Origin: a virus
Lineage: Duplodnaviria; Caudoviricetes
DNA length: 29,720 nucleotides
Strand: one strand, 5' to 3'
Virus record (IMG/VR): IMGVR_UViG_3300010286_000007
Coordinates: 1-29,720 of that record
The translations under genes were made by a program, and so were the position numbers. The notes beneath the pieces were generated by a model that made no database searches, had not been told where the DNA came from, and worked only from the letters and a program-made list of their open reading frames with translations. Shown piece by piece: positions 12,114 through 16,570 of the stretch; positions within the stretch are counted from its first letter, which is position 1, and each line of letters opens with the position of its first letter.

Positions 12114-12518
12114 ATGGATTTAAAAGAAATAGGAAAGGCAATAAAGCAATTAAGAAATGATAGGAAAATCACTCAAGTTGAATTAGCACAAAAAGCAAAT
12201 TGTTCACGTTCATTTATAGCCGACCTTGAACGCGGTGCTTCAAAGGCAAGTTTAGATACTTTAAAAAGCATAGCAAATGCTTTAGGCGTAAACTTATCTT
12301 ATTTATTATTAAAAGCCGAACACTCCATACCAGACGAATATGATTTGATGGTATTAAAGATAAAAAATGAATTTCCGCAAGGAATTACTATATTAAAGAA
12401 AGCTACAGAAGAATTAACAAAAAGACAAAAGAAAGATTTAGTAGAATTTATTGACTTCTTTATCAGAAAAGAAGTTGAAAAAGAATTGGCAAAACAAAAT
12501 AAAAAGAAAGGGGAGTAA
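12114..12518 (+). CDS. CI-like XRE repressor without peptidase domain
   Basis: N-terminal HTH ITQVELAQKANCSRSFIADLERG; short helical C-terminus; directly upstream of integrase. Confidence 0.85.
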   Translation: MDLKEIGKAIKQLRNDRKITQVELAQKANCSRSFIADLERGASKASLDTLKSIANALGVNLSYLLLKAEHSIPDEYDLMVLKIKNEFPQGITILKKATEELTKRQKKDLVEFIDFFIRKEVEKELAKQNKKKGE

Positions 12519-12519
12519 A

Positions 12520-13644
12520 ATGGCTCAATTTATTAAAAAAAAGAAAGGTTGGGCTGTCAGGTTTTATACTGATGAATTAGATGAAAAAGGTCAAAAGAAA
12601 AGAATATATCTTAGTGGATATAAAACTAAAAAAGATGCCGAAAATGCTATGCTAGAATATTTAAGTAACTTTAAGAAAACTGGTAGAACAATAGACAATA
12701 ACATCACTTTAAAAGAGTACTTAGAGTATTTCTTTGAGAATTATATAGTTACAAACACAGCTCCTCGCACACAAAGATATTATGCCGATATATTCAGGTT
12801 GCATATTATACCTTATATGGGAAGTATACGTCTAAATAACCTTAAGGCTTCTTTATTACAGCAGTATTATTTATATTGTTTAAATAATAAAGGTTTATCA
12901 AAAAATAGTGTTAAAAAACATCATAGAGCTTTACACTTAGCACTAAATTACGCTATGAAATGGGGATTGACTTATAACAATGTAACTGACATGGTAGAAC
13001 CACCAAAACCAGAAAAAGTAATAAAACATACTTTAAACAAAGAGCAATTAAATATGTTTTTAGAGGAAGTAAAGGGAACAAGTGTATATATTCCGTTTCT
13101 TTTATTAATTACAACTGGTTTAAGACGTGGAGAAGTGTGTGGATTACAAATAGAAGATGTAGATTTAGAAGAAGGTATGTTATATATAAGACATAATTTA
13201 CAGAGATATAACGGTAAATTAAATTTAACTACAACAAAAACACATAGGTCTAGTAGACCAATAGCACTTTTGCCGGAAACCATACCTATATTAAAAAAAT
13301 ATGAATTAGAAATAAAAAAAGCCAAACTAGCAAACCCAGCTTGGCAGGAAAATAATTTTTATTGTAAATGGTTAAATGATGGCAGACCTATAAAACCCGA
13401 ATATTTAACAAGAGTATTTAAAAAAATAATTAAAAAACTCAACTTTAACGAAGAATTGACATTGCATGATTTAAGACATTCACATGCTACTATATTATTA
13501 GAAGAAGGGAAACACCCTAAAATAGTACAAGAAAGATTAGGACATTCTACTATCAAAACAAGCATGGATTTATATAGTCATGTAACACCGCAACTTGAAA
13601 AGAAAGAAATGCAGAATGTCCATATACTTAAAAATAAATTTTAG
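12520..13644 (+). CDS. int: tyrosine integrase (start revised to MAQFIK)
   Basis: Arm-binding N-terminus (GYKTKKDA); GLRRGE, LHDLRHSHAT, RLGHS, DLYSH; GGGGAG RBS. Confidence 0.96.
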   Translation: MAQFIKKKKGWAVRFYTDELDEKGQKKRIYLSGYKTKKDAENAMLEYLSNFKKTGRTIDNNITLKEYLEYFFENYIVTNTAPRTQRYYADIFRLHIIPYMGSIRLNNLKASLLQQYYLYCLNNKGLSKNSVKKHHRALHLALNYAMKWGLTYNNVTDMVEPPKPEKVIKHTLNKEQLNMFLEEVKGTSVYIPFLLLITTGLRRGEVCGLQIEDVDLEEGMLYIRHNLQRYNGKLNLTTTKTHRSSRPIALLPETIPILKKYELEIKKAKLANPAWQENNFYCKWLNDGRPIKPEYLTRVFKKIIKKLNFNEELTLHDLRHSHATILLEEGKHPKIVQERLGHSTIKTSMDLYSHVTPQLEKKEMQNVHILKNKF

Positions 13645-13921
13645 GCACAGTTTAGGCACAAAGTTTCCAGATTTTATGCCTAAACTATTTTTTTATTTTT
13701 ACAAAACACAGTATTTAAAAAAGATACGGAGAACGCACGCAGAAGGATTCGAACCCTCGACACTCTGATCCGAAGTCAGGCAAAATGCATTTTATATTAT
13801 TAAAAATAATTTTAAATAATTTCATTTAGCTGAAAAATCAATGGTTTTAAGAAATAGAAGCTATGTATCTTTTGATATTTTTGTATATAATTTTAAAATT
13901 TTTAGGCACAGTTTAGGCACA
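13640..13921. mobile_element. attP with integrase arm-type repeats
   Basis: TTTAGGCACA at 13640, 13651, 13901, 13912; inverted TATGCCTAAA at 13675; flanking a tRNA-derived core. Confidence 0.88.
13734..13779 (-). tRNA. 3' half of tRNA-Arg(UCG) = att core (not a complete tRNA)
   Basis: CTGA-CTTCGGA-TCAG anticodon arm, GAGGG-TTCGAAT-CCTTC T arm, TGCGTGC-G acceptor 3' strand; no D arm. Confidence 0.85.
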
Positions 13922-14282: not shown

Positions 14283-14323
14283 GAAAAAGAAAGGCATTAC
14301 TCCAAAAGTGAGTAATACCTTTT
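14283..14323 (-). terminator. intrinsic terminator closing the accessory operon
   Basis: AAGGTATTACTC/GAGTAATGCCTT stem (one G-U) followed by TCTTTTT. Confidence 0.8.
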
Positions 14324-14355
14324 CGTATCATTTTATAATCGGGTTTCTTCCATCA

Positions 14356-14568
14356 TCAAGAGCTATCAAAGTCCGGGTTAGTTTTATATTTCATTAAAAA
14401 TTCATTTCCTGTCATGATTAATTCTCCTTTCAATTTTTTTATCGCTTCGTCTATGATCTTGCCCTGCGGTATATTAGTTTCTTTTGAATATTCTTCTAGC
14501 CATTCGGCTAGACATTTGTCTATGCTCAAATTTTTAACTTTTCTATTCTTCAAGTCTTTAACTGCCAT
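14356..14568 (-). CDS. ribbon-helix-helix regulator (Aca-like position)
   Basis: KVKNLSID strand, LAEWLEEYSKET and IPQGKIIDEAI helices; last gene of the operon. Confidence 0.8.
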   Translation of the reverse strand: MAVKDLKNRKVKNLSIDKCLAEWLEEYSKETNIPQGKIIDEAIKKLKGELIMTGNEFLMKYKTNPDFDSS

Positions 14569-14580
14569 AACAACCCTCCA

Positions 14581-14973
14581 TTAGATGCAATAATTCTGAT
14601 TTTCTAATTTACTTATATATTCTTGGCAATATTGTTCTGCTTCTTCCATTGTTTTAAAGCTTTTCATGAGTTCATATATTGATGAACCATATTCGGAAGT
14701 CATAACTTTTTTCCTATATGAACCACGAAAACAATGGTCGGTTTTTATTAATGCGGGAAATAATTCACCACGAGGTGGATCAGGTATAATGTACACATTA
14801 TATTCTGTTGTTTCTTCAATAAGTTTCTTTCTGGCTTCTTCGAGTTCTTCATCATTTGCACATACTTTTACCAGTTCATACCTATCGCTTAGCTGTAAGT
14901 GATTTTCACTATAAACACTCAGTGTTCCGGTTATTTTGTTTCTATATATCATCCATCTTTTTTCTTGTTTCAT
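14581..14973 (-). CDS. hypothetical protein (candidate anti-defence)
   Basis: GGAGG RBS; internal repeat YELVK..EELEEA / YELMK..EEAEQY. Confidence 0.7.
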   Translation of the reverse strand: MKQEKRWMIYRNKITGTLSVYSENHLQLSDRYELVKVCANDEELEEARKKLIEETTEYNVYIIPDPPRGELFPALIKTDHCFRGSYRKKVMTSEYGSSIYELMKSFKTMEEAEQYCQEYISKLENQNYCI

Positions 14974-15010
14974 GTCAATCCCTCCAATATTATTTTTTAA
15001 TTTCTGTTAC

Positions 15011-15038
15011 GGTTGGCAACTTAAACAAGTTGCCAACC
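15011..15038. repeat. perfect 12-bp inverted repeat spanning a stop codon
   Basis: GGTTGGCAACTT-AAAC-AAGTTGCCAACC. Confidence 0.85.
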
Positions 15039-15572
15039 TGTTTCAGCCACAACGGATATAATTTTTCCGTTTGGCAATTCTTTCTTTTCTCGTTTATCGT
15101 TATGGAACACTAGAACTTGTGTTCCATACCCGATCAAAAGTCCATTGTCGCAGTTTTCCATATGCCCGTACCCTTCATAGAAGGAAAGCTGTTTCATGAG
15201 GTATGGGATAGGGCTAACAAATATCACAATGTGATGTACGAGTTTTTGAAGGATTTCGTATTGTTCTTTTAAAGTCCAACCCATTGCGGGGACTCTTATT
15301 ATTTCATAGTCCCCAATTCGATTTTCTAAAATTTCAATCTGGGCGGGTAATAAACTGTGTTGTTCATTGATTATAACAAATGCTTTTCTGTCTCTGTCAA
15401 AAGTTAAGTCAGTGTAAGTAAATGCTTTTTCTTTGGCATCTTCTTTTGTTTGAGCATATGTAAGATTTGATGGTAATTTAATAACAGTTTTACATTTGGG
15501 ACATTTTTTGTAATCAATTAATTCATTTCTTTCAAATACTTCGTTACAGAAAATACATTTATAAAATCTCAT
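15021..15572 (-). CDS. Zn-ribbon fused to a small alpha/beta domain resembling Csx20/Csx16-type proteins
   Basis: CIFC...CPKC N-terminus; FVIINEQHSLLPAQ, VIFVSPIP, VFHNDKREKKELPNGKII; family resemblance is from memory only. Confidence 0.5.
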   Translation of the reverse strand: MRFYKCIFCNEVFERNELIDYKKCPKCKTVIKLPSNLTYAQTKEDAKEKAFTYTDLTFDRDRKAFVIINEQHSLLPAQIEILENRIGDYEIIRVPAMGWTLKEQYEILQKLVHHIVIFVSPIPYLMKQLSFYEGYGHMENCDNGLLIGYGTQVLVFHNDKREKKELPNGKIISVVAETGWQLV

Positions 15573-15598
15573 ATATATTACCTCCTTAATTATATTTT

Positions 15599-15817
15599 TT
15601 AATTGTATTTTTCCGGAAAAGCTATTTCCTTAGCTTCTTCCCTATTGTCGGCTAGAACGATTGTACTGTCCCAACCAATCGAGTCTCCACAGCAAGGGCA
15701 TTCAAGCCCTTGCAATTCATTTGGCTCGTAAACGTCTTTGCAGAATATACATTTATGAAAAACATTTGCATGTTTAGCTTTATATGCATTTGATGTTTTT
15801 ACAATCAAAGATTTCAT
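15599..15817 (-). CDS. stand-alone Zn-ribbon protein, paralog of the next gene's N-terminus
   Basis: KCIFCKDVYEPNEL...CPCC...EEAKEIAF. Confidence 0.7.
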   Translation of the reverse strand: MKSLIVKTSNAYKAKHANVFHKCIFCKDVYEPNELQGLECPCCGDSIGWDSTIVLADNREEAKEIAFPEKYN

Positions 15818-16032
15818 GATTGTGATTCCTCCTCTTCTAACTTCTCAACGATAATGACGCTTTTATCATAGCAATATCCATATTGAGAGTAGTCTTCACA
15901 CTCTTGATAGTTTTCAAATGGAATGTCGCTTAAATCAATATCTTCAAAATAGAATTCTGTGTTTTCGTCAATTACTTTAAAGATAATGTAATCTTCAGTT
16001 TGCTTTAAGATTTCATATTTTTTATTTTTCAT
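15814..16032 (-). CDS. small highly acidic protein
   Basis: 20 D/E vs 7 K in 72 aa; GGAGG RBS. Confidence 0.7.
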   Translation of the reverse strand: MKNKKYEILKQTEDYIIFKVIDENTEFYFEDIDLSDIPFENYQECEDYSQYGYCYDKSVIIVEKLEEEESQS

Positions 16033-16086
16033 AATGTCCTCCTTCTTTTTCCGATTTTTATGGATAATCGGGAACCAAATTTTAAT

Positions 16087-16410
16087 TTAAAAACCAAGCT
16101 CTTTCGCAAGAGCTAAAGCTTCTTTAACTGTCATTACGCTTCTTCTTGCAAGTTCAAAAGCTACTCGGTTTCTAGTTTCATCATCATCTGTAATAACGAT
16201 GTTTACTTTCTTGTATTGAACTGCTTTGCCGGAAATACGAACTAATTTTGCGTTTCGTTCTTTTCTCCAGTCTTTTTGAGTAGAAGCTTTTGCTTCTGCC
16301 CAAGCTATTTGAAGGCAGATAGCAAAAACTGCTTTCATATTTGTATCACTGTTTGTTCTATAGATTTCCCATGCTCTTTTCATGATATTTTGTGTGTTAT
16401 ATTTTTTCAT
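16087..16410 (-). CDS. hypothetical protein, first gene of the accessory operon
   Basis: GGGAG RBS; IMKRAWEI...CLQIAWAEAK helical motif. Confidence 0.75.
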   Translation of the reverse strand: MKKYNTQNIMKRAWEIYRTNSDTNMKAVFAICLQIAWAEAKASTQKDWRKERNAKLVRISGKAVQYKKVNIVITDDDETRNRVAFELARRSVMTVKEALALAKELGF

Positions 16411-16451
16411 TTTTACTATCTCCCTTCAAATTTGTTTTTCTTTATGGTCTT

Positions 16452-16481
16452 ATTATATCATGTTGTAGAACGTTCTACAAC
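16452..16481 (-). promoter_or_regulatory. sigmaA promoter overlapped by a 20-bp palindromic operator
   Basis: TTGTAG-17-TATAAT with TG extension; GTTGTAGAACGTTCTACAAC at 16462-16481. Confidence 0.8.
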
Positions 16482-16531
16482 GTATAATTTGCACAAACTT
16501 CAATTTATTATTTTATATATTTTGCACAAAT

Positions 16532-16570
16532 AAAAAAAGGGTACTGCTCGATCGAACAGTACCCTTTTTT
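16532..16570. terminator. bidirectional terminator ending the late/lysis operon
   Basis: A7-GGGTACTG-N10-CAGTACCC-T-tract. Confidence 0.9.

Follow-up and report, generated by a model that had tools for sequence, protein, structure and literature searches.

A variable six-gene phage operon with a predicted RHH autorepressor and a Csx20-like protein as a candidate counter-defence cassette

The window analyzed here is a stretch of 29,720 nucleotides (positions 1 to 29,720 of the IMG/VR record IMGVR_UViG_3300010286_000007, a virus of the Caudoviricetes), and the subject of this work is a unit of six small minus-strand genes, orf1 to orf5 and a terminal ribbon-helix-helix (RHH) gene, which lies between two terminator-like hairpins at positions 14290 to 16570. 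We consider it probable that this unit is a self-contained operon of variable content, which represses itself through its RHH protein and counters host defence via the Csx20-like product of orf4, acting on the alarm signal of type III CRISPR systems. With high confidence the block as such is regarded as a counter-defence cassette, in view of the Csx20-like domain predicted for the product of orf4. The anatomy of the unit, its variable content, the orf4 family and the neighbourhood of this family form the established part of this picture.

The protein encoded by orf4 (15021–15572, minus strand, 183 residues), a candidate ring nuclease, consists of a zinc ribbon (approximately residues 1–55) followed by a C-terminal domain of 124 residues, which is predicted to be of CARF type. 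An earlier note on this DNA, made from the letters alone, had described the five genes in front of the RHH gene as orphans; a sequence search with the last 124 residues of orf4 returned 309 relatives among 336 candidates, so that the description has to be abandoned for orf4. The family amounts to 529 clusters at 50% identity (the best 150 of these were listed), 457 of them at E ≤ 1e-10, and the three plasmid-borne copies that were opened are all annotated as hypothetical. The family alignment comprised 99 members, namely the query and 98 of the 119 listed relatives. Near-invariant residues of the family are N69, H72, Q78, G98, S120-P-x-P, N158, R161, K163 and G179-W180. On one related contig (L029, 6260–6532) a second, shorter and more divergent orf4-like domain was noticed by eye, 900 bp from the first.

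As reference for the comparison with Csx20 served 21 true Csx20 proteins above the NF040559 cut-off (70 bits), whose conserved residues H6, Q12, P29, QGDFGAT, R97 and H116 were considered. HHalign related the orf4 family to Csx20 at 53–73% probability on the basis of an N-terminal motif of 27 columns, with a score of 32.8, the highest among 40 column shuffles being 21.3. In this alignment the counterparts of the Csx20 His, Gln and Pro fall into register, the counterpart of the Arg was assigned by eye, and 99% of 144 family members retain the His and Arg that correspond by eye. The model of the orf4 domain (predicted local distance difference test, pLDDT, 92.9) and that of a true Csx20 (pLDDT 94.3) share the predicted element order strand-helix-strand-helix-strand-helix-strand-hairpin, with one additional helix in Csx20, and the predicted orf4 model displays the derived Rossmann, CARF-like fold with C-terminal beta hairpin by which Csx20 is characterized. 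Furthermore, the sole match at E ≤ 0.001 in BFVD was identical for both models, namely A0A5Q2WBQ4, an unnamed entry of 128 residues (orf4, 5e-4; Csx20, 1.5e-5), and two further entries were common to both top sevens. Against the PDB, a comparison that is not decisive on its own, the orf4 model gave full-length CARF matches to Csm6, Csa3, Can2 and Cdn1 at Z 4.6–5.0. A PADLOC model of Csx20 was matched weakly by nine of the 99 members (best E 0.0026). Searches of the ESM Atlas led to PF27247 (MJ1673) with scores of 0.84–0.86, under the 0.9 mark; in the Pfam scan three true Csx20 proteins, too, gave no match to PF27247.

Several observations weigh against this assignment. At the sequence level the support is weak: the HHalign match spans 27 columns and drops to 1.3% in global mode, and one of 30 block shuffles exceeded the observed score. 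The commonest PADLOC match in the family was the unrelated PDC-M13A (10 of 99 members), NF040559 was touched by a single one of the 99 (E 0.083), and orf4 of the window itself matched neither the NCBIfam nor the PADLOC models of Csx20. The TM-score to A0A5Q2WBQ4 was 0.39 for orf4 versus 0.68 for Csx20. Moreover, LacI-type folds came first when the orf4 model was ranked against solved structures (Z 6.5), whereas the Csx20 control, which itself peaked at Z 6.3, ranked CARF domains first. By eye, the QGDFGAT motif and the C-terminal His (H116) of Csx20 are without like-for-like counterpart in orf4. Foldseek of the orf4 model against the PDB returned nothing at E ≤ 0.001, the sequences of solved structures, searched with orf4, the orf4 alignment, orf1 and the RHH protein, yielded no useful match, and tblastn against GenBank phages found no match for orf4, orf1, one orf4-family member or one true Csx20. 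Crn4 and AcrIII-1 were considered as identities of orf4 and found no support; no sequence similarity was detected. Taking both sides together, we regard the orf4 domain as very probably homologous to Csx20 and the CARF domains. Cleavage of cyclic tetra-adenylate (cA4) by the modelled domain we consider just somewhat more probable than its absence, because orf4, as judged by eye, deviates from Csx20 in the central motif and the C-terminal His.

The surroundings of the orf4 family were analyzed on the basis of 109 open reading frames (ORFs) around 17 of 18 genome loci, 88 of which were sent to Pfam after family members and overlapping frames had been left out. Among these 88 neighbours ArdC, LPD29, RadC-JAB and, near one member, Tad3 were identified, and no Cas family was found, as is expected for a phage-borne Csx20-like copy. 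In the viral loci, 44 hand-picked ORFs comprised ArdA and RadC-JAB besides ordinary replication and metabolic genes; the anti-defence occurrences of both sets are raw figures, uncorrected for background. At one locus (L007, 2480–2800) irregular tandem repeats with a period of 68 bp, which did not appear CRISPR-like on reading, precede a cluster of an orf4-family gene and ArdA on its 5' side.

These data also bear on an alternative which accepts an anti-defence cassette and supposes that the orf4 family has left the chemistry of Csx20, either for another signal, such as cyclic triadenylate (cA3) or cyclic GMP-AMP (cGAMP) of the cyclic-oligonucleotide-based anti-phage signalling system (CBASS), Thoeris signals or S-adenosylmethionine-AMP (SAM-AMP), or for the role of a non-catalytic sponge. 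The tightness of the family, with its 457 of 529 clusters and its own set of near-invariant residues, the member beside Tad3 and the lack of any member seen within cas loci suit this alternative, which we nevertheless judge improbable, if deserving of attention: the His and Arg matching Csx20 by eye are almost universally kept, and it is to these residue types that PMC8284326 and PMC12830947 ascribe the chemistry of ring nucleases.

A gene content fixed across related phages had been named in the earlier note as a finding that would speak against its reading; in fact, the content differs among all three alleles found (window, L002 and L268). In L002 the lysin, holin, promoter and orf1 share 93–98% DNA identity with the window, and the order is orf1, orf2, a stand-alone Csx20-like gene (63% identical), an unrelated gene for 84 residues in place of orf5, and the RHH gene, which is retained although the gene preceding it has been swapped. 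In L268, from which orf2 is absent, orf1 is directly followed by a stand-alone Csx20-like gene and then by a third cargo ending in an orf3-like zinc ribbon. The product of orf3 (15599–15817, minus strand, 72 residues), a zinc ribbon (CxxC..CPCC) with a weak match to NF001606 (E 0.0056), is a paralogue of the orf4 N-terminus (phmmer E 2.3e-9), a similarity that is also visible as a DNA repeat within the window. In view of this paralogy and of the stand-alone domain in L002 and L268, orf4 is a zinc ribbon like that of orf3, fused to a domain that stands alone elsewhere. An assembly error is unlikely, since an RNA-library contig (X2 record 11) crosses the fusion joint with a 12-base in-frame gap. 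The RNA-library contigs of relatives span 14340–16423 without the flanking lysis or repressor genes; as the RNA runs were selected using this stretch their coverage is biased, three of the four having small word shares, and the contigs, which carry no strand or level information, were not used as evidence of timing.

The last gene of the unit, directly before the closing terminator, encodes an RHH_3 protein of 70 residues (14356–14568, minus strand; PF12651, E 6.8e-8; phrog_3180, Arc-like repressor, E 5e-12), for which tblastn against GenBank phages found Bacillus phage LY4 only. The orthologue in L002 has 55 residues and lacks a 19-residue tail that is present in the window, where the frame 14356–14430 (minus strand) runs into an internal Shine-Dalgarno (SD) sequence and ATG and thereby yields the tail, perhaps the remnant of a gene since deleted. 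The promoter of the unit and its predicted RHH operator occupy 16452–16484 on the minus strand. The promoter is of the extended -10 type, TTGTAG-17-TGnTATAAT, with TTGTAG at 16480–16475 and TG-A-TATAAT at 16457–16452; the automated promoter scan missed it because its -35 element has only three of six matches. A perfect palindrome of 20 bp (16462–16481), the only gapless one in the window with arms of at least 8 bp, overlaps the promoter, and the predicted operator reads TACGTT-gtag-AACGTT-ctac-AACATG.

Comparison with relatives of the RHH gene (80 of 128 viral contigs kept, 49 non-redundant, six without a called ORF) revealed promoters with hexamer repeats 10 bp apart spanning a weak -35 element, in which the hexamer varies by RHH subgroup along with residues of the beta strand, as judged by eye. 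A repeat score of at least 5 out of 6 across the -35 element was obtained for 14 of the 39 loci scored among the 49, compared to one of 37 orf1-type controls (Fisher p 3e-4, a value that ignores relatedness). The window operator and that of L002 both score 5, and the cassette promoter alone carries the phased repeat among the window's 23 promoter-like sites. As the palindrome gains a mismatch in L002 while the third hexamer improves there to AACGTG (AACATG in the window), the comparison favours phased repeats rather than the palindrome as operator. On these sequence grounds we hold autorepression of the cassette promoter by the RHH protein to be likely. Points against it are that 25 of the 39 promoters score below 5, that the nearest upstream gene lies on the opposite strand in 46 of the 49 viral loci (TnpB in ten), and that a terminator-like hairpin precedes the RHH gene in L002, which disfavours strict co-transcription there. 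Since the family mostly stands solo, opposite one cargo gene, it is not specific to anti-CRISPR-associated (aca) genes and provides no Aca marker on its own. The proposal of the earlier note, a counter-defence unit resembling an anti-CRISPR (acr)-aca operon, gains in part from the variable alleles, the Csx20-like orf4, the anti-defence neighbours of orf4 and orf1 relatives and the operator layout of the RHH family.

The same observations are central to a second alternative, according to which the cargo is as described and the RHH gene a passenger, the promoter being controlled by another factor or by the orf1 mRNA stem alone. The mostly solo divergent arrangement of the family, the hairpin ahead of the RHH gene in L002 and the different sequence that the RNA contigs of relatives carry 5' of the RHH gene (a loose end at 14581) are in line with it. 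We consider it unlikely in view of the retention of the RHH gene next to swapped cargo and of the family-type repeat here, which none of the other 22 promoter-like sites of the window possesses. In L188–L263 the RHH_3 gene forms a portable divergent module, in which about 90 bp with phased repeats separate it from a swappable cargo gene; a literature search found no description of such a module. On a short contig (L181) a homologue of Crn4 (82–495; E 2e-15 to PDB 9r7b) lies convergent with an RHH_3 relative (804–971), 310 bp apart.

The first gene, orf1 (16087–16410, minus strand), encodes a basic protein of 107 residues, whose residues 1–42 align as a common part with AcrIIA3/Gp111, the remainder being unique; its eight more distant relatives carry an unrelated C-terminal half. 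Its matches, over residues 4–79, are weak (PF07410, E 0.0013; NF033948, E 5.7e-5 and 23.1 bits at a cut-off of 70), so that orf1 stays below the cut-off for AcrIIA3. Of its 329 relatives 80 were kept, 39 of them non-redundant; these are mostly the first gene behind a strong promoter and are often followed by small orphans and a helix-turn-helix (HTH) gene. One operon led by an orf1-type gene (L147, 4001–7077) contains an AcrIII-1-family gene (PF08960, E 9e-28) together with a homologue of cas5 and a gene of the radical SAM type.

Folding of the orf1 leader unveiled a predicted long-range mRNA stem (16307–16431, minus strand), in which the SD region (16431–16410) pairs with the coding sequence of orf1 itself (16328–16307), approximately 80–100 nt downstream, via 22-nt arms of 91% complementarity (z −5.5; none of 200 shuffles was as stable). 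The stem amounts to −29.0 kcal/mol, whereas synonymous nulls give −13.3 kcal/mol (p 5e-4), and the best SD pairing among the 27 other genes of the window reaches −14.5 kcal/mol. In folding of the growing transcript the SD region is predicted to be open up to 90 coding bases and closed from 100 on. Pairing of the SD region with different letters was found at 20 of 39 orf1-relative loci versus six of 142 control genes, a count inflated by a 19-member clade; by clusters it stands out in four of 19 (binomial p 0.013, Wilcoxon p 0.18), and RNAalifold over 30 of the 39 loci gave no single consensus long-range stem. A family-wide leader stem is therefore rejected, and the stem is a trait of some lineages, where it would act as a brake on translation. 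Besides, a hairpin YCATG-AAAAGAG-CATGR (orf1 codons 9–14, columns 55–71 of alignment A6) is kept in nearly all of the 30 relatives and shows no compensatory changes; its conservation may reflect merely the peptide motif used to find the relatives.

Combining these elements, we propose the following sequence of events. Upon entry of the DNA no repressor would be present and the extended -10 promoter would fire, and the ribosome-binding site of orf1 would remain accessible for no longer than the first 90 nt or so of coding sequence take to be made. RHH dimers would then fill the 10-bp-phased hexamers over the -35 element and damp the operon. The orf4 domain would act as a CARF-like dimer via His72, Ser120, Asn158 and Arg161 and would cleave or capture the cyclic oligoadenylates by which type III CRISPR systems raise their alarm. 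A more far-reaching version, which we put forward only tentatively, sees in orf4 a large unnamed enzyme family of mobile elements that descended from Csx20, with an active site rebuilt against cyclic-nucleotide alarms possibly beyond cA4, in an operon with two brakes, the portable RHH repressor, whose family would control TnpB and other cargo elsewhere, and the mRNA stem of orf1, which would close the SD region shortly after the onset of transcription.

The remaining anatomy bears out the six-gene unit described in the earlier note: six minus-strand ORFs of the reported lengths, each with an SD-like purine-rich stretch on its 5' side, two terminators and the extended -10 promoter are all present. 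The terminator-like hairpin of the lysis module (16533–16570, minus strand; 17 pairs and a T tail) is kept in L002, as are two copies of TTTGTGCAAA, 33 bp apart, on the 5' side of the -35 element (16483–16530, minus strand). The unit is closed by an intrinsic-terminator-like hairpin (14290–14322, minus strand; 13 pairs and a T tail); the terminator scan returned ten hairpin sites in 7 kb, 3.0 being expected. The acidic orphan orf2 (15814–16032, minus strand, 72 residues; 20 D/E, pI 4.05), which is present in L002, is DNA-mimic-like by composition only, and orf5 (14581–14973, minus strand, 130 residues), an orphan in a variable slot, has two near-identical relatives among eight candidates. For orf2, orf3 and orf5 no family above cut-off was found in Pfam, PHROG, NCBIfam or PADLOC, and the Rfam scan gave no family above threshold. 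Together with orf1 these three are candidate inhibitors without assigned target.

The window is a piece of a temperate phage (the virus record is approximately 50% complete) with groups of genes for replication and recombination, an antirepressor, two HTH repressors, a tyrosine integrase (12451–13644) and tail and capsid proteins. A Clostridia-like host is suggested by the kinship of the genes. The cassette is placed between the attachment region and the amidase-holin lysis module. The likely phage attachment (attP) region (13636–13921), between integrase and cassette, contains a tRNA 3' half (~13728–13779, anticodon TCG by eye) flanked by two AGGCACAGTTTAGGCACA repeat boxes, and half-gene and boxes probably constitute an intact attachment site; one RNA-library contig runs on into a complete tRNA at 13779. 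From this setting a third alternative arises, namely an accessory cassette expressed in the lysogen for superinfection control or host modulation, with orf4 as a Rossmann-like domain of unrelated function. The site, the own promoter and the terminators would generally suit accessory genes too, the confinement of the RNA contigs to 14340–16423 (from runs chosen with the stretch and thus biased) would suit lysogen expression, and generic Rossmann folds lead the PDB search; still, this alternative is quite improbable given the unique structural match common to orf4 and Csx20 and the anti-defence neighbours in unrelated elements, and expression in lysogens is, as in the acr operons of Listeria, compatible with an anti-CRISPR role. 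Just beyond the unit lies an orphan gene for 63 residues (14113–13922, minus strand), whose promoter (14267–14239) is the best match of the region (11 of 12) and holds CGAACATATGTTTG (14261–14248) in its spacer, which we take to agree with the Firmicute LexA box; the gene is likely SOS-induced.

The divergent orf4 family, the evidence on the operator and the leader stem are new here. Should cyclic oligoadenylates be cleaved by orf4, hundreds of proteins of phages and plasmids that lack an annotation would become candidate anti-type III CRISPR enzymes, and as the tested Csx20 profiles mostly miss the family, counts of viral ring nucleases, such as the five phage genomes with Csx20 out of 28,114 in a 2024 survey, would be underestimates. 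With the RHH family and the orf1-type leader gene, new markers would be at hand for tracing anti-defence genes of phages that infect Clostridia-like hosts, and the existence of an RHH-type Aca beyond Pasteurella could be tested directly on the predicted operator. A literature search, with subscription papers mostly outside its coverage, found no report of the orf4 family or of the orf1 leader stem; this negative refers to main texts, and Supplementary Fig. S7 of PMC13551039, which lists csx20 homologues, may include members of the orf4 family.

Compared with known systems, the unit shares with acr-aca operons an RHH regulator ending an operon of small genes and an inverted repeat overlapping the promoter; none of its ORFs reached a curated Acr cut-off in the profile scans of Pfam, NCBIfam and PADLOC, so that a known acr gene is missing. 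The earlier note had cited Aca10 as an RHH-type Aca, which conflicts with PMC13551039, where the RHH-type Aca is Aca14, which is distinct from the earlier HTH Aca families and represses the csx20-aca14 operon of Pasteurella multocida. Csx20, which according to bioRxiv 10.1101/2024.09.24.614671 cleaves cA4 (the phage count given above is from the same source), resembles orf4 in size, element order, the N-terminal H-x-L-x3-Q..P, the Arg before the C-terminal hairpin and the top match among viral structures, and differs in its NF040559 match, its additional helix and, by eye, QGDFGAT in place of S-P-x-P and the C-terminal His; it occurs in cas loci, whereas the orf4 family resides in phages and plasmids. 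In its proposed role, the removal of cyclic oligoadenylates, orf4 is comparable to AcrIII-1 (PF08960) and Crn4b, although no sequence similarity to them was detected; Crn4 and predicted ring nucleases are covered by PMC12830947 and PMC8284326. The N-terminal module of orf1 bears a weak likeness to AcrIIA3/Gp111 (NF033948, PF07410), the rest differing. The scores of orf4 and orf1 stay below the cut-offs for Csx20 and AcrIIA3, and the likeness to Aca14 (WP_005725436.1) lies in the RHH type and the operon layout. From csx20-aca14 the cassette differs in host group, in an orf4 that lies outside the Csx20 profiles and bears a zinc ribbon, and in its operator, which is built of phased hexamers over the -35 element and spacer rather than of an AT-rich repeat over the -10 element. 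In both, an operon on a mobile element joins an RHH gene to a gene of the Csx20 type and has an inverted repeat in its promoter. Of the known systems csx20-aca14 is the one closest to the cassette, which would work in the manner of acr-aca operons.

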